NCBI GenBank assembly: GCA_963665665.1
Contig: OY762428.1
Location: 3,488,001-3,552,000 of the forward strand
Length of the DNA stretch: 64,000 nucleotides
Reading direction: 5' to 3'
Source of the DNA: Candidatus Kapaibacterium sp.
GTDB lineage: Bacteria > Bacteroidota > Ignavibacteria > Kapaibacteriales > UBA2268
Shown here: piece by piece, positions 7,373 through 54,329 of the stretch
Position numbering within the stretch: position 1 is the stretch's first letter
Layout: the number at the start of each line of letters is the position of its first letter
The notes under the pieces: generated by a model
The model's database searches: none
Told to the model about the DNA's origin: nothing
What the model saw: only the letters and a program-made list of their open reading frames with translations
Program-made: the position numbers and the translations under genes

Positions 7373-10300
7373 ATGTCTTTTAAAGAATTAATTATCCGGA
7401 GGATTTTTTTGATGAAAATCAAATTGTTTACCGCATTGTTCGCGATGATTGTTTTATCGCTGAATTTGACAGCAGCCGAAGTTTCAGTATTTGATGCTGA
7501 TATCAACTCGGGTGACAAGACTTACTGGACTAATGACAACGTATACGTACTTGAAGAAATGGTCTTCGTTGAAGACGGAGCAGAACTTTACATTCAGGAA
7601 GGTACAGTCATTAAAGGTAAAGAAGGACAAAAAGAAGATTCTAAAGCCCTGGTTATCTGCCGCGGCGCTAAAATCTTTGCTGAAGGTACTCCTAACAAAC
7701 CGATTATCTTCACTGCTTACGCTGATGACCCCTATTCAATGACTGATCTTCCGCTTACGGAAACAGGCCTTTGGGGCGGCGTTATCATTCTTGGTAAGTC
7801 CGTTACAAACAATACATCAGGCGAGAAAAATATCGAAGGTATCGATGAAAACGAGCCTCGCGGTAAATATGGTGTTGCAGACGGGGAAGGCGACCCGCAT
7901 GATAACTCAGGTGTTGTTCGCTACGTTTCAATCCGTCACGGCGGAACAGATATTGGCGACGGTAACGAAATCAACGGCCTTTCACTTGGCGCTGTTGGCG
8001 ACGGTACTACTATCGAATACGTTGAAGTATGGTACAACAAAGATGACGGTTTCGAATTCTTTGGCGGAACTGTAAACGCACGTTACCTTGTATCTGCTTA
8101 TAACGGCGATGATTCTTTTGATTATGACGAAGGTTTCAACGGTAAAGGCCAGTTCTGGTTCTCAATCCAGGCAGAAAACCGCGGTGGAAACGCCGGTGAA
8201 CATGATGGCGGTAACAAACCTGATGATTCTGAACCTTATGCACGTCCTGAAATTTATAACGTAACTTATATCGGTTCAGGTTTGAATTCAGAAAATACAG
8301 GCAAAGACGGATCAAAAGGTTTCCTTATCCGCGACAATGCCGGTGGAAAATACTACAACTCAATCTTCATGGATACTCCTGACCTTGGCCTTGAAGTAGA
8401 AGACCTTGAATCAGGACACGATTCACGCGAAAGACTTGAAACAGGCGATCTCGTGTTTAATAATAACATCTGGTGGAATGTTGGCGGCGAAACAACAACA
8501 GTTGAAACAATCAGCCCGGATGCAGAAAAATATTCACAGGATTTTGTAAGGTCATACCTTGCAGATGCTAATAACAATAACTGGATTGTTGATCCTCAGA
8601 TTATGAGCATCAGCAGGAATATTGCTAATCCTGATGGTGGACTTGATCCACGCCCTGCTTATGGCAGCCCTGCATTTACAAATGCTACAGCTCCTGTTCC
8701 AACCAACGGATTCTTTGAAGCAGCTGATTACATTGGCGCTTTTGGCCCCGGTAATCTTTGGATTGACCACTGGACTCTTCTTTCTCAGTCTGGTATCATG
8801 AAAGAACTTCGCAAAACAGAAGTTTCTGTATCTGATGCTGATATCAATGCCGGCGATATGGTAACATGGACTTCAGACAATGTTTACGTTCTGGATGACA
8901 TGGTATTTGTTGAAGAAGGCGCTACACTGACAATCGAGCCCGGAACAGTTATAAAAGGAAAAGACGGACAGAAAGAAGATTCAAAAGCATTGGTTATCTG
9001 CCGCGGTGCAAAGATCATGGCTGAAGGTACACCCGTACAGCCTATCATCTTTACTGCTTATGCTGACGATCCTTATTCAGTAACTGACCTTCCTTTAACT
9101 GAAACAGGCCTTTGGGGCGGCGTTCTTATTCTTGGTAAATCTATAACAAACAACGTTTCAGGCGAAAAGAATATCGAAGGTATCGATGAAAACGAACCTC
9201 GCGGAAAATATGGCGTAGCAGACGGAGCCGGCGATCCTCATGATAACTCCGGCGTATTCAAATATTGCCAGATCCGCCATGGTGGTACAGACATCGGTGA
9301 CGGTAACGAAATTAACGGCCTTTCAATGGGTGCTGTCGGCGACGGTACAGTTATTGAAAATGTTGAAGTTTGGTACAACAAAGATGACGGTTTCGAATTC
9401 TTTGGCGGTACAGTAAATACACGCTTCCTCGTTTCTGCTTTCAACGGCGATGATTCATTTGATTATGATGAAGGTTTCAGTGGCAAAGGCCAGTTCTGGT
9501 TCTCAATCCAGGCAGCCAACCGCGGTGGAAACGCCGGCGAACACGATGGTGGAAATAAACCGGATGACGCAACACCTTATGCAATTCCTTATGTATATAA
9601 TGTAACATATATCGGTTCCGGTGTAAACTCAGAAAATACAGGTAAAGACGGTTCCAAAATCTTCCTTCTTCGCGACAATGCTGGTGGTAAATACTTCAAT
9701 AATATCTTCATGGATACACCTGACCTTGGTGCTGATATCGAAGACCTTGAATCAGGCCACGATTCACGCGAAAGGCTCGAACAGGGAGACCTTAAGCTTC
9801 AGGGTAATATCTGGTGGCACATTGGCAGCGAAACAACAACTGTTGAAACAATCAGCCCGGATGCTGAAAAATATACTCAGGATTTTGTAAGGGAATATCT
9901 CTCAAATGCTGATAACAAAAACGTAATTGTTGATCCTAAACTTTATGGAATCAGCAGAAATGTTGTTACTCCTGACGGCGGACTTGATCCCAGGCCTATG
10001 ATGGAAAGCCCCGCATGGACAGCTGACAGAATGCCCGTTTACGGCGTAAATAATACATTCTTTGCTGTTGCTGAATACAATGGCGCTTTTGGACATTACA
10101 ACTGGCTCAGCGACTGGACATTCCTTTCACAGGCAGGCGTTACAGGCGGTATGGCCGGACGCAACCCGATGATTGAACTTGCAACAGGCGTTGACGAACC
10201 AACATCAGTTGAAGAACAGCCAATCGAAAACAATGGCGAAAACGGAATCAGCAACTATCCCAACCCCTTCGAAGAAACTACTGAAATTCAGTTCTACGTT

Positions 10301-10492
10301 TCAGAATACTCAAACGTAAAAGTTACAGTATTCAACTCAATGGGCCAGGAAGTTGAAACACTTGTTAACAAAACTCTTGCACCGGGCCTTTACGGAGCAA
10401 AATGGACAGTTAACAATCTTCCGGCAGGCGCTTACATAGTAAGAATGGTTAACGGTAACACAGTTAAAACACACAAGATCATTCTTAAATAA
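7373..10492 (+). CDS. T9SS-secreted protein with two tandem ~447-aa Asp/Gly-rich (beta-helix-like) domains; likely start 7412
   Basis: Internal duplication with 1341-bp period (7478 vs 8819); C-terminal NYPNPF...GAYIVRM...KIILK T9SS type A sorting domain. Confidence 0.85.
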   Translation: MSFKELIIRRIFLMKIKLFTALFAMIVLSLNLTAAEVSVFDADINSGDKTYWTNDNVYVLEEMVFVEDGAELYIQEGTVIKGKEGQKEDSKALVICRGAKIFAEGTPNKPIIFTAYADDPYSMTDLPLTETGLWGGVIILGKSVTNNTSGEKNIEGIDENEPRGKYGVADGEGDPHDNSGVVRYVSIRHGGTDIGDGNEINGLSLGAVGDGTTIEYVEVWYNKDDGFEFFGGTVNARYLVSAYNGDDSFDYDEGFNGKGQFWFSIQAENRGGNAGEHDGGNKPDDSEPYARPEIYNVTYIGSGLNSENTGKDGSKGFLIRDNAGGKYYNSIFMDTPDLGLEVEDLESGHDSRERLETGDLVFNNNIWWNVGGETTTVETISPDAEKYSQDFVRSYLADANNNNWIVDPQIMSISRNIANPDGGLDPRPAYGSPAFTNATAPVPTNGFFEAADYIGAFGPGNLWIDHWTLLSQSGIMKELRKTEVSVSDADINAGDMVTWTSDNVYVLDDMVFVEEGATLTIEPGTVIKGKDGQKEDSKALVICRGAKIMAEGTPVQPIIFTAYADDPYSVTDLPLTETGLWGGVLILGKSITNNVSGEKNIEGIDENEPRGKYGVADGAGDPHDNSGVFKYCQIRHGGTDIGDGNEINGLSMGAVGDGTVIENVEVWYNKDDGFEFFGGTVNTRFLVSAFNGDDSFDYDEGFSGKGQFWFSIQAANRGGNAGEHDGGNKPDDATPYAIPYVYNVTYIGSGVNSENTGKDGSKIFLLRDNAGGKYFNNIFMDTPDLGADIEDLESGHDSRERLEQGDLKLQGNIWWHIGSETTTVETISPDAEKYTQDFVREYLSNADNKNVIVDPKLYGISRNVVTPDGGLDPRPMMESPAWTADRMPVYGVNNTFFAVAEYNGAFGHYNWLSDWTFLSQAGVTGGMAGRNPMIELATGVDEPTSVEEQPIENNGENGISNYPNPFEETTEIQFYVSEYSNVKVTVFNSMGQEVETLVNKTLAPGLYGAKWTVNNLPAGAYIVRMVNGNTVKTHKIILK

Positions 10493-10580: not shown

Positions 10581-11087
10581 TGTTTTATTGAAAATGAATA
10601 GGAATGTCTCCCGTTGGCGGGGGTGTCCGAAGGACGGGGGTGGATTTCTTTTTCTTGCTTTCAAACATCGGTGAAATGCCTCTGACCCTTCCTACCTCCC
10701 CCCGACCCCCTCCTTCGGAAGGAGGGGGAGTTAATTCCATGATATTTAACTTCTTATCCCCTCCTAATGTAGGAGGGGATTATAGGGGTGGTTTCTTCAT
10801 ACATTATCTGGCGAACAAAGATGGATTCTTCCGTCGCTTCGCTCCGTCAGAATGACAACATAATACTTCCTTCTCCGGCCCTTTCCCCCCGTTCTTCCAC
10901 CGCAATTAACCAAGCACCGGCCTTAATTCCCCATCCTGTGGTTTCAATGAACCTGATAATTTCCTTAATTCAAAGCTGTTTTGCTCCAGAATCCTGATAT
11001 TTGGGCTAATTGCTTTGTTGGCAGGGCTTTATACTGCCTTGTCCGGAGGTATTGAAGCATTGTTTTGCCTTAATGTAGTGATATTTG

Positions 11088-11276
11088 GCTTCATTGCTCA
11101 CTTGTTTCACCTCAATGATGTCTTGTTCGGATTCATTGATGTCTTGTCCGGTCTCATTGCTCACTTGTTCTGCATCACTGTTGTCTTGTTCCGCTTCATT
11201 GATGTCTTGTTCTGCCTCATTGCTCACTTGTATGGCTTCATTGCTCACTTGTCCGGCTTCATTGCTTGCTTGTTTG
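11088..11276 (-). repeat. 21-bp degenerate tandem array A, 9 units (consensus ~RAACAAGNNANCAATGAAGCN)
   Basis: Units such as AAACAAGCAAGCAATGAAGCC and GAACAAGACATCAATGAAGCG on the minus strand. Confidence 0.85.
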
Positions 11277-11850
11277 GCATTGAAATCCCGAAGATAGAGA
11301 TGAGAATAGTCTATAGATAGAACTGATAATCAAATATTCAATCTAAAATACTATATATTATACTATTTGTATTAAATATATAGTATTTATAATAATTTAT
11401 ATAATATATCCAAGCCTTGATATAGTTCATCTAACAAAACTTTTTATATAAATAACTAAATATTATATACATATAATTAAATAATTGGTATGATTTATTA
11501 AATTAATTTTATAAACTATTAAATATCAGTATTAACCTATTAATTAATTAGTATATCTAATTTGTTAGAACAATTAAATATATCCTTGGATACATAATTA
11601 ATTTTATAAAAAGAGAATAATAAATAATACTATTTAGTGATTAATGACTTGTATGAATTATTAATTTGATTAATTATATTATTAATATTGTAAATCTATA
11701 TGATTATTTAATAATCTGATAAATATATTTATTACAAACACTTAAATATTTACTAATTCTTATAATATATTTTATTATTCAAATATTATAAATAATAAAA
11801 TCAGTTAAATATTCCGGATTCCAACGCTACACAAGCAATCATTACCACCA

Positions 11851-12312
11851 AACAAGGCAGCAATGCCTACAAACAAGGCGACAATGCCTCCAAACAAGGC
11901 AACAATAAAATCAACCATCGGTGCAATGGCGTCAAACATTGGTGCAATGCTTCTGAACAAGGCAGCAATAACTTCAAACAAGACAACCATAATTCCTAAC
12001 AAGGCGACAATGCCTCCAAACAAGGCAACAATAAAATCAAACATCGGTGCAATGGCGTCAAACAAGGCAACAATAACTCCTAACAAGGCGACAATAGCTT
12101 CAAACATCGGTGCAATGGCGTCAAACATTGGTGCAATGCTTCTGAACAAGGTAGCAATGACTCCTAACAAAGCATCAATGACTCCTAACAAGGCATCATT
12201 ATCTTCAAACAAGGCAGCAATAACTTCGAACAAAGCGACAATACTTTCGAACATCTGTACTTTGCCTCTAAACAAGGCATCAATGACTTAGAACATCGGT
12301 TCTTTGCTTTCG
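11851..12312 (+). repeat. 21-bp degenerate tandem array B, 22 units (consensus ~AACAAGGCAGCAATGACTCCN)
   Basis: Strict 21-bp period of AACAAG/AACATC anchors. Confidence 0.9.
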
Positions 12313-12761
12313 ACCCTTCCTACCTCACCCCGGCCCCCTCCTTCGAAAGGAGGGGGAGTTAATTCTATGATATTTAACTTCTTATCCCCTCCTAAAGTAG
12401 GAGGGGAGTACAGGGGAGGTTTTCTTTCTTTGCTTCCGACCAAGGCAGCAATGACTCCGACCCCTCCCAAACCCTCCCCGAAGGAGAGGGCTTTGAAGTA
12501 AAACAAGGCAGCAATAGAATAAACCATTGGTTCTTTGCTTTCGCCTCTTCCTATCTCTCACTGGCCTTCTCCTTCGAAAGGAGGGGGAGTTAATTCTATG
12601 TTATTTAACTTCTTATCCCCTCCTTGCGGAGGAGTGGATTATAGAGGTGGTTTTCTTTCTTTGCTTCCGAACATTACATCTATTTCCACGAGATAGAGAA
12701 CGCGGCTATTGATTATTAGGATGCTAAGTCCGGGATGTCATCCTGAAACGGCTGGTCGGGA

Positions 12762-40475: not shown

Positions 40476-40766
40476 TAATATTCCTGCGGTTAATATACAA
40501 AGAATTTTGAAAAATGAACAATTAAAGATTTGAACTCCTTGCTATGGCAAAGTAAAAATCACATAGCTTCCCGGCCTTAGCAACGTCAAAATCAATAGCC
40601 GGGTGCTTTGTCTCGTGGATAAATATGCCCTGAACGGAGGCAAAGAAAGAAAACCACCCCTATAATCCCCTCCTCCGCGAGGAGGGGACAAGAAGTTCAA
40701 TATCAAAGAATTAACTCCCCATCCTTCCGAAGGAGGGGGCCGGGGGTAGGTAGGAAGGGTCTATGG

Positions 40767-41460
40767 TAATGCACCGTTGTTTGATTCTATTGTCGCCTTG
40801 GTCGAAGTCATTGCTGCCTTGTTCGGAAGCAAAGTACTGATGTTAGGAGTTATTGCTGCCTTGTTCGGAGTCATTGTCGCCTTGGTCTAAACCATTGCTA
40901 CCTTTTTCTTCTTCAAAGCCCTCTCCTTCGGGGAGGGTTTGGGAGGGGTCGGAGCCATTGCTGCCTTGTTTGAAGATAATGACGCCTTGTTCGGAAGCAA
41001 AGTACTGATGTTTGAAGTCATTGCTGCCTTGTTCAGAAGCAAAGTACTGATGTTAGGTGTTATTGCTGCCTTGTTCGAAGTCATTGACGCCTTGTTCGGA
41101 GTCATTGCTGCCTTGTTCAGAGGCAAAGTACTGATGTTAGGAGTTATTGCTGCCTTGGTCGAAGTCATTGATGCTTTGGTCGGAGTCATTGATGCTTTGT
41201 TTGAAGTCATTGCTGCCTTGTTCAGAGGCAAAGTACTGATGTTTGAAAGTATTGTCGCTTTGTTCGAAAGCATTGTCGCTTTGGTCGGAGTCATTGATGC
41301 TTTGTTTGAAGTCATTGCTGCCTTGTTTAGAGGCAAAGTACTGATGTTAGGAGTTATTGCTGCCTTGTTCGAAAGCATTGTCGCTTTGGTCGGAGTCATT
41401 GATGCTTTGGTTGGAGGCAAAGTACTGATGTTTGAAGACATTGCTGACTTGTCCCGAAGT
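40767..41460 (-). repeat. 21-bp tandem array B (~30 units, interrupted by a REP hairpin at ~40912-40950)
   Basis: Plus-strand units such as GGAGTCATTGCTGCCTTGTTC and AGAGGCAAAGTACTGATGTTA. Confidence 0.9.
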
Positions 41461-42028
41461 AATGATTGCTTGTGTAGCGTTGAAATCCGGAATATTTAAC
41501 TGATTGTATTATTTACAATACTTAAATAATAAAATATATCATAAGAATTAGTAAATATTTAAGCGTTTGTAATAAATATATTTATCAGATTATTAAATAA
41601 TCATATAGAATTACAATATTAATAATATATCTAATCAAATAAATAATTCATCCAAGTCATTAATTACTATTTCCTATAAATTCTTCTTCTTTTTTTATAA
41701 AATATATTAAGTATCCAAGTATATATTTAATTATTCTAACAAATTAGATATACTGATTAATTAATAGGTTGAAATTGATATTTAATAATTCATAAAATCA
41801 ATTTAATAAATCATACCAATTATTTAATAATATGTATAATTTATTTAGTTATTCATATAAAAAGTTTAGTTAGATGAACTATATCAAGGCTTGGATATAT
41901 TATATAATTTATTATAAATACTATATATTTAATATAAATAGTATAATATTTAATATTTTGAAATAAATATTTGATTATCAATTCTATCTATAGACTATTC
42001 TCATCTCTATCTTTGGGATTTCAATGCC

Positions 42029-42595
42029 AAACAAGCAATCAATAAGGCGGAACAAGCAATCAATAAGGCGGAACAAGACATCAATGAAGCAGAACAAGCG
42101 AGCAATGAAGCAGAACAAGCGAGCAATGAAGCAGAACAAGACAGCAATAAGGCAGAACAAGCAATCAATAAGGCAGAACAAGACATCAATAAGGCGGAAC
42201 AAGACATCAATAAGGCAAGACAAGCAATCAATGAGGCGGAACAAGCAATCAATAAGGCGGAACAAGACATCAATGAAGCAGAACAAGCAATCAATGAAGC
42301 GGAACAAGACAGCAGTAAGGCGGAACAAGCAATCAATGAGGCGGAACAAGCGAGCAATGAAGCGGAACAAGCAATCAATGAGGCCAAACAAGCAATCAAT
42401 GAGGCCAAACAAGTAATCAATGAAGCAGAACAAGCCGTCAATGAGGCGGAACAAGCAATCAATGAAGCGGAACAAGCAATCAATGAAGCGGAACAAGACA
42501 TCAATAAGGCAAGACAAGCCGTCAATAAGGCGGAACAAGCCGTCAATAAGGCGGAATAAGCAATCAATGAAGCAGAACAAGCCGTCAATGAGGCG
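42029..42595 (+). repeat. 21-bp tandem array A, 27 units
   Basis: GAACAAGCAATCAATAAGGCG / GAACAAGACATCAATGAAGCA variants; 567 bp = 27 x 21. Confidence 0.92.
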
Positions 42596-43268
42596 GAACA
42601 TTGCTGCAATAGCTTCGGCCAAGGCAACAATATATTCAACCATCGGGGCTTTGCTTTCGACCCCTCCTACCTTCCTCCGGCTCCCTACTTCGGAAGGAGG
42701 TGGAGTTAATTCTATGATGTTTAACTTCTTATACCCTCCCGATGTAGGAGGGGTGCCCGAAGGACTGGAGTGGAAAACAACTCGAAGATACCTAACAATA
42801 AAAATGGATGCTCTTGTAAACAGATTTCCGGACGGGGTTTGAAAGCATAGAATTACCTGGAAATCCTCCCCCGGCCTAACGGCCACCCCCTCAATGAGGG
42901 GAACATCAGAACAAAAACGGCACTGTCCACCGCCGGCCCCGATATATTCCCGATAAATCGGGACAGGCCGGGGTGTTTTTCTTTTCTTTCTTTTGGAACC
43001 TTGCATCTTTATCCACGAGATAGAGCATGTGGCTATTGAATTTGACGAGGGTTGGGGTGCATTTCATCCTTAAGCTGAGCTTTATAATTCCAATGTTGAA
43101 CTTTGTAGGAAATAATCAATCCCAATTATAACTTGGAAGGAGGGAAAAAGATTATAATCAAGATCATTTCGCATTTATCCCAAAAAAATTTTGAAATAAT
43201 AAAAAAAATGAGGAACTTTTTGAATCAGTTGTGACTCTTATTATGGAGAGAACAAAATAAGGTTTGAA

Positions 43269-52689: not shown

Positions 52690-54002
52690 TAATTAGTTAC
52701 GACCCCTCCCAAACCCTCCCCGAAGGGGAGGGCAAAAAGTTCAAAGCCCCTCCTTCGGATCCCGACAAGTCGTGGACAGGGCGGGTTTGGGGAGGTCAGA
52801 GCCAATGCACCAAAGTTTGAACCTATTGCTGCCTTGGTCGGAGTCATTGCCGCCCTGTTCGTAAGCAAAGAAAGAAAACCACCCCTGTATTCCCCTCCTA
52901 CTTTAGGAGGGGATAAGAAATTAAATATCATAAGATTAACTCCCCCTCCTTCCGAAGGAGGGGGCCGGGGGGAGGTAGGAAGGGTCGAAAGCAAAGCACC
53001 ACTGGTTTATTCTATTATTGCCTTATTCTTCTTCAAAGCCCTCTCCTTCGGGGAGGGTTTGGGAGGGGTCAGAATCATTGCTGCCTTGTTTGAAGATAAT
53101 GAACTCTTGGTTGAAGCTATTGCAGCAATGTTTTACTTCAAAGCCCTCTCCTTCGGGGAGGGTTTGGGAGGGGTCCAAATCATTGTACTGATGTTTGAAG
53201 ATAATGAACTCTTGGTCGACACTATTGCAGCAATGTTTTGCTTTATTGCTGCCTTGTTCGAAGTCATTGCTGCCTTGTTTGAAGGCATTGAACTCTTGTT
53301 CGGAGGCAAAGAACATGTTCAATAAGGCCAAACAAGCGTGGGATAAAGTCAAACAAGCGTGGGATGAGGCCAAACAAGCGTGGGATAAAGTCAAACAAGC
53401 GTGGGATAAAGTCAAACAAGCGTGGGATAAAGTCAAACAAGCGTGGGATAAAGTCAAACAAGCGTGGGATGAGGCCAAACAAGCGTGGGATAAAGTCAAA
53501 CAAGCGTGGGATGAGGCCAAACAAGCGTGGGATAAAGTCAAACAAGCGTGGGATAAAGTCAAACAAGCGTGGGATAAAGTCAAACAAGCGTGGAATGAGG
53601 CCAAATTTCACTACAATAAGGCCAAACAGTGCTTCAATACCACCGGCCAAGGAAGTATAAAGCCCTGCCAACAAAGCAATTAGCCCAAACATCATGGTTT
53701 TGATTAAAAACAGTATTGAAATAAGGAAATTATCCGATTCATTGAAACCACAGGATGGGGAATTAAGGCCGGCGGCCTGTTCATTGGGGTGTAAGAACGG
53801 ATAAACTGAGCAAAAGAATGAGATGTTATGTTGTCATTCCCCGACACGTCGGGGCAGGCTTCCGGAGCTTGCGACTGAAGAATCCGTCTTTGTTTGCAGA
53901 TAGTGTATGAAGAATGGATTCTTCGCTGTCGCTCAGAATGACATCCAGTTTTACTTTCGTCAAATTCAATTGCCACGTGCTTTAGCTCGTGGATAAAGAC
54001 GC
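52690..54002. repeat. Composite dispersed element, copy 3 (AT core absent)
   Basis: REP doublet at ~52873-52985, array B fragments, array A at 53330-53602, tail homologous to ~10890-11087. Confidence 0.8.
53330..53602 (+). repeat. Near-perfect 21-bp tandem array, 13 units of two main types
   Basis: 9 x AAACAAGCGTGGGATAAAGTC, 3 x AAACAAGCGTGGGATGAGGCC, 1 x AAACAAGCGTGGAATGAGGCC. Confidence 0.95.
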
Positions 54003-54329
54003 AACGTCCCGAAGACTAAGAAAAAGAAACCACCCCTGCCTGTCCCGACGTGTCGGGAACTCGCTGCGTTCGCCACACCTCAACGAGGGGAATTTTCCGG
54101 AATTCCACCCCCGCCCTTTCCCGACTCGTCGGCGCCAGCGTGGGACATAGAGCCTCCTTCCCAAGCCCCCGCTTGGGAAGGAATATTTCTTGCAAAGTTC
54201 TACTTTGAAATAGAGAAGCTCAGCTTCAAAAGAAAACTGCATTACGAAGTATAACTTCGTAATGAGGGGAATAATCGACAGCGGCGTAGCCGCGACATTT
54301 TTGTAGAAAGGCGAATCCGGAAAGGACAA

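Follow-up and report, generated by a model that had tools for sequence, protein, structure and literature searches.

A dispersed family of composite intergenic repeats on a common 21-bp register in a Candidatus Kapaibacterium genome

Architecture of the element in the window

The window analyzed here, 64,000 nucleotides of Candidatus Kapaibacterium sp. (contig OY762428.1, positions 3,488,001 to 3,552,000 of the forward strand), lies within a single-contig genome of 5,458,198 bp (99.5% complete) and holds three copies of a composite repeat element. Two arrays of 21-bp units, which we term A and B, run in opposite directions away from the center of the element and are accompanied by REP-like hairpin modules, with an AT-rich core between the arrays in copies 1 and 2 and a tail of degenerate units beside the A array in copies 1 and 3. 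Inspection of the sequence located all three copies where an earlier note on this DNA had placed them. Analysis with Tandem Repeats Finder (TRF) reproduced the A-array unit counts of 9, 27, and 13 given in that note (9.1 units at 11087-11278, 27.2 units at 42030-42600, and 13.0 units at 53322-53593) and found B arrays with a period of 21 bp and its multiples, including higher-order repeats of 42 to 126 bp, at 11848-12253, 40795-41473, and 53031-53314. AT-rich cores were borne out for two copies (at about 11279-11847 and 41474-42029); copy 3 is coreless, with B joined straight to A. The GC content of the 1-kb windows holding cores was 0.28 versus about 0.40 in the rest of the window, and that of the core itself was about 0.16. 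The description of the arrays as outward running was correct, as the anchor A[AC]CAAG points away from the center on both sides. We likewise agree that the arrays are not CRISPR, with 21-bp units that abut without spacers, that the open reading frames (ORFs) of the three window copies include no transposase, and that no named family is matched in Rfam, in Pfam searches with the array ORFs, or in plasmid and phage collections. The element is a multicopy, nonautonomous composite.

Copy 1 corresponds in our module map to a cluster at genome positions 3498690-3500656 (window 10690-12656). Its tail side begins with outer REP-like hairpins at 10600-10819, including an M3 module at about 10690-10800, as seen in the sequence and the module map. 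These are followed on the minus strand by the tail (10820-11086), about 270 bp of degenerate 21-bp units in the register of the A array with 53 genome copies at 82-95% identity, and by the A array (11087-11278; TRF and anchor runs), whose nine units are of the EQDINEA type when read outward. The core (11279-11847) consists of 26 lattice units (546 bp) plus transitional bases, as delimited by gap-free alignment and spacing, and has stops in all six frames. Within it, a genome pattern search placed a 19-bp signature motif, TTGATATAGTTCATCTAAC, at 11417-11435 on the plus strand. The B array (11848-12291, plus strand; TRF and anchors) has 21 units with anchors at phase 0, except for one that TRF-like matching shifts forward by a single base; a further match, off the lattice, falls within a unit. 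The outer B side (12292-12715, plus strand) carries M3 (126 bp), one unit, M4 (42 bp), two units, M3, and an end piece, all in register; its anchors at 12292, 12439, 12502, and 12670 are 147, 63, and 168 bp apart, all multiples of 21. Terminator-like hairpins were enriched in copy 1, with 9 against 1.9 +/- 1.3 in shuffled sequences, and those on the B side point outward.

Copy 2 is inverted relative to copy 1. Its outer M1 and M3 modules on the B side (40584-40794, minus strand; module map) lead into a B array (40795-41473, minus strand; TRF) with one in-phase M4 at about 40909-40950 and all 21 of 21 anchors at phase 0, then into a core (41474-42029) whose signature motif occupies 41869-41887 (minus strand) and an A array (42030-42600, plus strand) of 27 EQAINEA-type units with an in-frame TAA in the heptad frame. 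The remaining part (42601-43047, plus strand) holds B-like units, M3, other REP hairpins, and M1 and is tailless. The outer modules on the B side form an inverted pair with 43003-43047 (45 nt, 84% complementary). Copy 3 has outer M4, B units, and M3 (52690-53030, minus strand; anchors at 52833 and 53085 lie 252 bp, or 12 x 21 bp, apart), B-type units with two in-phase M4 modules forming a 105-bp higher-order repeat (53031-53310, minus strand), and, at the direct B/A junction, the palindrome GAACATGTTC (53311-53320), which is present in 22 of 33 coreless junctions. An A array of 13 KQAWDKV-type units (53322-53593, plus strand; TRF), a tail (53595-53865, plus strand; BLASTN and alignment), and outer REP-like M2 and M1 modules (53866-54004, plus strand; module map) complete this copy.

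The same polar order, [M1][M3][M4] - B array - (core) - inverted A array - tail - M2 - M1, was found in all loci of the genome, and the module map showed exactly one tail in each of 52 loci, all arranged alike. Common to the A and B units are an anchor, A[AC]CAAG (unit positions 0-5), and a CAAT[GA]A box (positions 10-15), two conserved patches about 10 to 11 bp apart, and the 10.5-bp harmonic was one of the strongest across the A, B, and tail zones. The anchor and box have opposite orientations in the two arms, so that A is inverted relative to B in 44/44 loci having both, and the arms differ in unit type. Array length ranged between loci from 5 to 34 units. M1 to M4 are GC-rich imperfect palindromes with 86-132 intergenic genome copies each that also occur without arrays. 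Within clusters, these modules mostly keep one orientation (for example, runs of M3+ M1+) and do not alternate as in REP/BIME. In a comparison with the terminal inverted repeats of miniature inverted-repeat transposable elements (MITEs), copy 2 showed the 45-nt inverted ends noted above, and most loci had M1 at both ends in direct orientation.

A 21-bp register and constant lengths across the genome

The earlier count of three copies in 64 kb is accurate for the window and too small in scale for the genome. Our module map contains 162 clusters, 66 with an array, core, or tail and 56 with a tail or core; the latter amount to 91,965 bp, 1.68% of the genome, at about one site per 100 kb. Whole-genome BLASTN returned 53 tails and 16 full cores; the latter, counting the query itself, were 82-93% identical. 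In a whole-genome TRF run, 288 of 833 rows had a period of 21, and merging all arrays whose period is 21 or one of its multiples gave 192, together spanning 57,127 bp. This repeat abundance is far beyond chance. Clusters reach at most about 4 kb and contain no gene save inserted insertion sequence (IS) copies, and neither the three window copies nor the module maps hold a gene for a transposase or other enzyme. Because the copies share unique, ordered, nonrepeated zones, they descend from one ancestor and were spread by duplication. We are confident that these 56 loci constitute a lineage-specific family of noncoding composite intergenic repeats whose parts are set on one 21-bp lattice.

The evidence for a common register comes from distances between parts. 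Arrays were defined as runs of anchors 21 bp apart, a definition that builds in the phase within an array and leaves the phase between arrays free. The nearest B array stood at phase 12 relative to the A array in 44/44 loci with both, and when all B arrays were counted, 48 of 49 were in phase with A. Measured from anchor to anchor, the B-to-A gap was 30 nt in every one of 33 coreless loci and 576, 702, 807, 870, or 1038 nt in 11 core loci, in each case 30 plus a multiple of 21; the core adds 546 bp (26 x 21), giving the spacing of 576 (30 + 26 x 21) in copy 1. REP modules within arrays occupied 42 or 126 bp in all three window copies, and the anchor distances across M3 or M4 in the window were 147, 63, 168, 252, and 84 bp. 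Outside arrays, an M3-M1 cluster had a spacing of 132 bp. Consecutive arrays on the same strand were in phase in 5/6 cases. The tail and core belong to the same lattice, the tail as about 10 degenerate units whose profile along the lattice is that of the A units and the core as 26 AT-rich units, which start with ATATTTAAT in the A-proximal half and carry its reverse complement in the other half. This shared register of REP modules, core, and tail and the membership of the core in a wider class of AT islands were overlooked in the earlier note.

The nonarray parts of the element also kept a constant length. All 16 cores with 60-nt flanks were 661 nt long and aligned gap-free. Across the 16 x 546 bp of core we counted at least 274 substitution events and no gap columns, and across the first 200 columns of 51 tails, at least 195 events and no gaps, for a combined minimum of 469 substitutions and no insertions or deletions (indels). 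Gaps remain rare in the tail over about 270 nt, up to the point where the variable REP modules set in. General indel-to-substitution ratios in noncoding bacterial DNA lead one to expect tens of indels for some 470 substitutions. Choosing full-length copies may conceal large deletions, and truncated and IS-split copies do exist. The substitution spectrum was strand symmetric and biased from GC to AT.

The cores are part of a class of about 30 AT islands of about 462 bp that have a signature motif in common. This 19-bp motif, TTGATATAGTT[CT]ATCTAAC, occurs at 30 genome sites with two or fewer mismatches (27 exact) versus one site for a reversed control, and the 28 sites found by regular expression all lie within islands with a GC content of 0.18-0.25. 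A second motif, resembling TATTTAAT, recurs within the AT island. Autocorrelation at lag 21 was strong in the cores (z = 23.6) and in the other islands (z = 17.1; 13 of these taken singly gave z = 3.4-7.4) and negative at lags 10, 11, 20, and 22. By a GC criterion, 11 of 13 noncore islands measured 460-470 bp, close to 22 units, and 15 cores measured 430-480 bp; the two odd noncore islands, of 190 and 590 bp, are both at sites split by IS3. About six solitary islands are 67-76% identical to each other and often face the 3' ends of convergent genes. Among solitary islands, 13 of 14 BLAST matches longer than 250 nt had equal spans in both members, and in matches between cores and solitary islands, spans were equal in three of six, exactly 21 bp apart in one, and 5 bp apart in two.

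Some islands are part of a second repeat of about 2.04 kb with six copies, in which REP modules and a short 21/42-bp array occur together with an AT island bearing the 19-bp signature and an ORF of 304 amino acids (genome 4923545-4925585, 3453477-3455536, 4943206-4945070, 859805-861365, and two more split by IS3). The island ends 28-35 bp before the ATG of the ORF, the motif is found some 400 bp upstream in the same orientation, and the side of the island facing the ORF corresponds to the B-array side of the lattice element. The 304-aa protein matched no Pfam, NCBIfam, or PHROG family and had six metagenome homologues at 32-37% identity. An AlphaFold2 model (predicted local distance difference test score of 80.9) predicts long helical hairpins and an FN3 domain, and Foldseek matched the model to structures in the PDB in the FN3 domain only.

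Genomic setting, coding potential, and distribution

The genes next to 52 loci were convergent in 21, tandem in 25, and divergent in 6, and the orientation of the element was independent of its neighbors. The adjoining ORFs, taken without annotation at these 52 loci, vary in position, size, and strand. From GC skew and gene-strand bias, we place the replication origin near 1.72 Mb and the terminus at about 4.75-5.1 Mb, with unequal replichores of about 3.2 and 2.3 Mb. A solitary island at 1.7325 Mb was considered as oriC and dropped, having no DnaA-box-like 9-mer within about 1 kb. Elements co-oriented with the replication fork made up 25 of the 38 coreless loci and 7 of the 14 core loci, with no clear bias. 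By eye, the orientation of coreless elements switches near 0 and 2.75 Mb, and about 32 of 39 conform to this pattern. The genome is larger than the 24 listed genomes of the same family (2-4.6 Mb).

With regard to mobility, the earlier note had proposed a foldback-like nonautonomous element moved in trans, for example by a RAYT enzyme. The form fits, as inverted tandem-repeat arms surround a middle domain. The genome has two Y1_Tnp matches, a clear RAYT-like ORF of 155 aa at 1821817-1822161 and a weaker match in a 1399-aa frame. The clear one, however, is bordered on either side by a REP pair of its own without relation to M1-M4, and no M1-M4 module lies within about 3 kb of it. Among 52 pairs of flanks we saw no target duplications by eye, and no ends could be defined. 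We also considered an IS with a DDE_Tnp_1 transposase of 369 aa, present in seven copies 99-100% identical (genome 136660, 997185, 2158435, 2209991, 2483307, 371379, and 1346860), as the mobilizer and rejected it, as its ends are unrelated to the element and it is inserted into M3. The IS copies reflect target preference, not partnership, and the positions of the IS3-family copies suggest that they prefer AT islands as a target.

Read outward, the A array encodes amphipathic heptads (EQAINEA, KQAWDKV, and NQVFSKV), and in 34/36 coreless loci the junction supplies an ATG for an ORF of 34-163 aa that mostly ends in ...KAKQ followed by TAG or TGA. Four frames, however, are open in these 36 A arrays (in 36, 34, 36, and 35 of them, respectively), and the core has 16-24 stops in each of the six frames. 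Diversity in the tail and core had no 3-base periodicity or third-position excess. A search of 5.8 billion proteins gave one chance match among 1341 candidates, and Pfam searches with the array ORFs returned only coiled-coil matches below the cutoff. One reverse frame in the A and B arrays has fivefold-fewer stop-creating variants; we rejected this as evidence of coding because the variation in these columns comes from dimorphic unit types and A and B occupy opposite strands. We conclude that the arrays are not conventional genes, although small proteins encoded by the coreless subfamily are conceivable, if unlikely. The stop-free frames invite false gene calls, and the element should therefore be masked or flagged in annotation.

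With regard to RNA, Rfam matches in the window were confined to the rRNA operon and tRNAs, and the element itself matched nothing, whether at the gathering threshold or at the looser E<=1. The tail had a weak consensus fold, at -23.8 kcal versus -17.1 +/- 5.8 for shuffles on one strand and -18.4 versus -12.5 +/- 1.8 on the other. The position of the island upstream of the 304-aa ORF and the outward-pointing hairpins leave room for a possible transcript from the island into the B array.

Searches of other genomes point to a narrow distribution. The tail query matched 10 of 40 other genomes in its REP part only (query positions 270 and beyond), and the core query found short AT-rich matches in 13 of these 40, two of which were examined and had no 21-bp period. 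The B-array query matched none of 120 genomes of the same family (55 genera), and the signature motif had one to three matches at two or fewer mismatches in 34 of the 120, about equal to a reversed control. One pattern scan each of a genome collection and a metagenome collection gave 9 and 18 single chance matches, respectively, and no DNA match was found in 72,556 plasmid or 50,697 phage records. In the literature searched, we found no prokaryotic element of this kind.

Short-read data supported the assembly. Contigs from two runs (X1 and X3) match the copy 1 pieces 11036-11264 and 11916-12027 without difference, and flank contigs from two studies enter the outer modules of copy 1, on the left up to 10644 and on the right from 12595-12725. 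In this comparison the middle of the element is covered by short multicopy pieces only, without a bridging contig, and joints with sides shorter than 31 nt were ignored as repeat noise. The element is not an assembly artifact, since contigs of two studies recover its edges as well as pieces specific to one copy. Contigs from the second study, about 98% identical in the flanks, enter the outer modules on both sides of copy 1, a weak sign of a sister strain that may carry the element at the same site.

Interpretation, rival readings, and other repeats

Parts of this architecture have counterparts in known systems. Type II plasmid centromeres (parC of R1 and pSK41) are arrays of 10- to 20-bp repeats wrapped by cooperative ParR into a superstructure, and in R1 parC the repeats form two sets around the promoter. 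They have 4-10 repeats beside parMR and occur once per plasmid, in contrast to the longer, dispersed arrays here. BOX elements of Streptococcus pneumoniae are modular and nonautonomous, about 100-300 bp long, with fixed end modules and a variable tandem middle module. They differ from our element in having one repeated module, without an inverted second array or AT island, and no reported common register. REP and BIME sequences carry protein-binding sites and lie mostly at gene 3' ends in enterobacteria and pseudomonads. Our element is like them in its high-copy, GC-rich intergenic hairpins in mosaics with linker motifs, as described in parts of the REP literature (PMC2817692, PMC3333891). It differs in its long 21-bp arrays, AT island, and tail in one register, in modules that mostly keep one orientation, and in that the clear RAYT of this genome is flanked by other REPs. 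Foldback-like transposons (FB, Galileo, and Tetris) share the long inverted tandem-repeat arms around a middle domain and are mostly nonautonomous, and the repeats of Galileo carry multiple transposase-binding sites, according to passages of PMC3688188, PMC4079207, and PMC3573991. As portrayed there, however, these are eukaryotic elements with near-identical arms and a known transposase, whereas here the arms differ (A/B), a unique tail is present on one side, and no transposase was found; the literature searched held no prokaryotic Foldback-like example. By layout, the nearest described system is the origin of Staphylococcus aureus pathogenicity islands (SaPI), in which iterons lie on both sides of an AT-rich center in opposite directions (sections of PMC9371898). 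The logic of iterons combined with a DNA-unwinding element (DUE) is reviewed in PMC4980987, and the portions of both sources considered here describe repeats spaced so that the sites share one helix face. SaPI iterons are 5-6 bp long, number 6-12, and sit beside a rep gene in the sections cited, in contrast to 21-bp units at 5-34 per arm, without an initiator gene, in 56 chromosomal copies. Because that gene is missing, the element cannot be assigned to the iteron origins. What is new is the lattice register across arrays, hairpins, core, and tail, and we file the family among mosaic intergenic repeats.

We propose that this nonautonomous mosaic repeat is a helically phased protein-binding scaffold and that the helical register is the selected property, a reading to which we assign a probability of roughly 0.4. 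It develops the iteron-plus-unwinding-element or protein-binding platform raised in the earlier note, for which the two-turn register, the zero indels, and the constant island length make the best fit; no binding protein or initiator gene was found. Twenty-one base pairs are two turns of B-DNA. Two patches about one turn apart would present the same sites on one helix face in successive units, and an array could then act as a track for a cooperative or filament-forming DNA-binding protein. The AT island, with about 22 units, a recurring motif, and one signature site, may be a center of nucleation, bending, or melting from which the A and B arrays would lead off as two oppositely directed tracks. 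Arrays would gain or lose whole units by slippage or unequal recombination, so that distance varies and the rotational setting stays constant, and other indels would be selected against. The simplest cause that we can propose for the fixed register and length is that sites must stay on one helix face for a cooperative protein. Copies would spread as nonautonomous DNA and mostly settle at gene 3' ends. In a bolder form, for which we hold out less hope, the family would be a bacterial "DNA lattice," a phase-locked nucleoprotein superstructure of chromatin-, centromere-, or origin-like kind built from AT islands of about 22 two-turn units, extensible arrays, and hairpin modules sized in multiples of 21 bp, and a categorically new architectural DNA element, in which selection would keep helical register and length, not sequence.

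Several findings count against the scaffold. Rotational phasing cannot persist over 2 kb of free DNA, so that only local or protein-constrained phasing is meaningful. The 304-aa ORF is the sole gene tied to the AT island, and the analysis turned up neither a binding protein nor an initiator or other partner. The expected number of indels is taken from general ratios, with a neutral rate uncalibrated for this organism. G/C sites of the core decay to A/T at 0.7-0.8 events per site, as expected under neutral drift, and although diversity is lower in the first half of the core units, base composition confounds this difference. Five of the seven copies of the DDE IS lie in or beside elements, with the two junctions read in the C/G run of M3, and IS3-family copies (orfA/orfB) split three AT islands (2032443-2034379, 164763-166207, and 4627630-4629073); such insertions are tolerated, which argues against a need for each copy. 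Nothing similar was found in the relatives searched, and therefore there is no deep conservation. A scan for sigma-70-type promoters was not above shuffled sequence (12 sites versus 8.3 +/- 2.9).

The main rival, which we regard as possible rather than probable, is a selfish or neutral REP mosaic of the BIME or BOX kind that captured a 21-bp minisatellite and has no host function. Its register would then arise incidentally, since array length changes only in whole-unit steps and every part is derived from 21-bp units. The variation of arrays from 5 to 34 units and the recognizably degenerate units of tail and core agree with this, as do the lineage-specific distribution, with no B array in the 120 family genomes and only single chance matches in pattern scans, the sites, which are typical for harmless insertions, with an orientation untied to the neighbors, the IS copies inside elements, and the GC-to-AT bias of substitutions. 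It accounts poorly, however, for the lack of indels against at least 469 substitutions in copy-unique sequence that includes slippage-prone AT-rich runs, for equal island spans in 13 of 14 long matches at 67-76% identity, for hairpin modules that are exact multiples of 21 bp inside arrays and spaced at 132 bp outside them, and for a 19-bp motif intact in 27 of 30 islands despite their divergence. Genes for small heptad-repeat, coiled-coil-like proteins are an unlikely alternative reading of the arrays, with an MF[SN]K start, heptads such as KQAWDKV, NQVFSKV, and KQVLSKA, and an NEAKFHY[IN]KAKQ end, to which a B-array frame ending 7 nt after the ATG could be added as a coupled upstream ORF. The junction ATG with its ORF, heptads that stay amphipathic across quite different DNA units, a stop after KAKQ kept via two base changes (TAG in most loci, TGA in four), and the coiled-coil families among the subthreshold Pfam matches all speak for proteins. 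Yet the open frames single out none, diversity lacks a third-position excess, and the upstream ORF frame in B arrays has an excess of stop-creating variants (39 versus 19 expected). Moreover, core-type loci lack an ATG in that frame, copy 2 has its in-frame TAA, DNA conservation continues unchanged for about 230 nt beyond the stop, the protein search yielded its one chance match, and coding would leave the register of core and REP modules unexplained.

A transcribed repeat RNA, started at a promoter in the island, running through the 10-30 tandem 21-nt units of the B array, ending at the M4/M3 hairpins, and serving as a sponge for protein or RNA or as a small-RNA source, is improbable to a similar degree. 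The island just upstream of the 304-aa ORF in the six repeat copies, with the motif on the same strand, and the excess of terminator-like hairpins with the outward ones on the B side would suit it. It has against it the lack of an Rfam match, the weak fold of the tail, the promoter scan, and the absence of a Piwi match in the genome; many of the solitary islands have convergent genes with their 3' ends toward them, and an RNA role needs neither a constant island length nor in-phase REP modules. Very unlikely, and a special case of the scaffold, is an origin-like module for a helper replicon, whose firing or titration would depend on an initiator supplied in trans from a phage, plasmid, or satellite. 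It draws on the resemblance to the SaPI origin and the iteron-plus-DUE logic in the parts of PMC9371898 and PMC4980987 noted above. Arrays beside an AT-rich core with units spaced by two helical turns fit as well, and M1 (for example, window 43008-43050; about 92 genome copies) carries a 9-mer, TTATCCACG, that occurs 124 times in the genome versus 98 for the perfect consensus and is one base off the DnaA-box consensus. No initiator gene lies in or beside the three window copies, however, and the unannotated neighboring ORFs differ among the 52 loci; the plasmid and phage records gave no match, 56 firing origins on a chromosome would be hazardous, and the arrays are far longer than known iteron sets. 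Templated repeat synthesis by a reverse transcriptase or similar enzyme, the last proposal of the earlier note, or an assembly artifact, would match in form only the arrays of identical short units without stops, and both are very improbable. The genome has no RVT_1 match, while control genomes gave matches, and the substitution spectrum is strand symmetric with no adenine-only signature; the short-read contigs of two studies disfavor an artifact.

REP, BIME, BOX, and MITE repeats are usually described by sequence and hairpins; the conserved quantity in the present family is a 21-bp register, common to the arrays, hairpins, 546-bp core, and tail. If the register is selected, the family would offer a direct handle on the use of helically phased DNA, with about 56 natural variants in unit number at the same phase. 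If it is not, the family would be a clean case of a minisatellite and a REP mosaic co-evolving and inflating a genome.

A second, unrelated dispersed family with a 21-bp period is present in the genome, for example at 235702-236291, 3994235-3994692, and 4735823-4736349. Its order is a conserved leader, about 13 units of the CACATCCCAACGCTAAGACGG type, a 29-bp spacer, about 14 units of the AACGCTCGGAAAGCTTGGGGG type, and a tail; it is phase-locked in 5/5 loci sharing that exact spacer, and in-frame stops interrupt the MFLEA... frame in 4/5. In the window itself, a 1039-aa ORF upstream of copy 1 (7373-10492) is made up of two long halves, each about 480 aa in length, that resemble each other closely. 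A 41-bp unit repeated perfectly in tandem (27045-27218; 4.2 copies, 100% matches) sits in the rRNA operon between the second spacer tRNA (26981-27053), whose end it overlaps, and the 23S gene, which begins at 27361.

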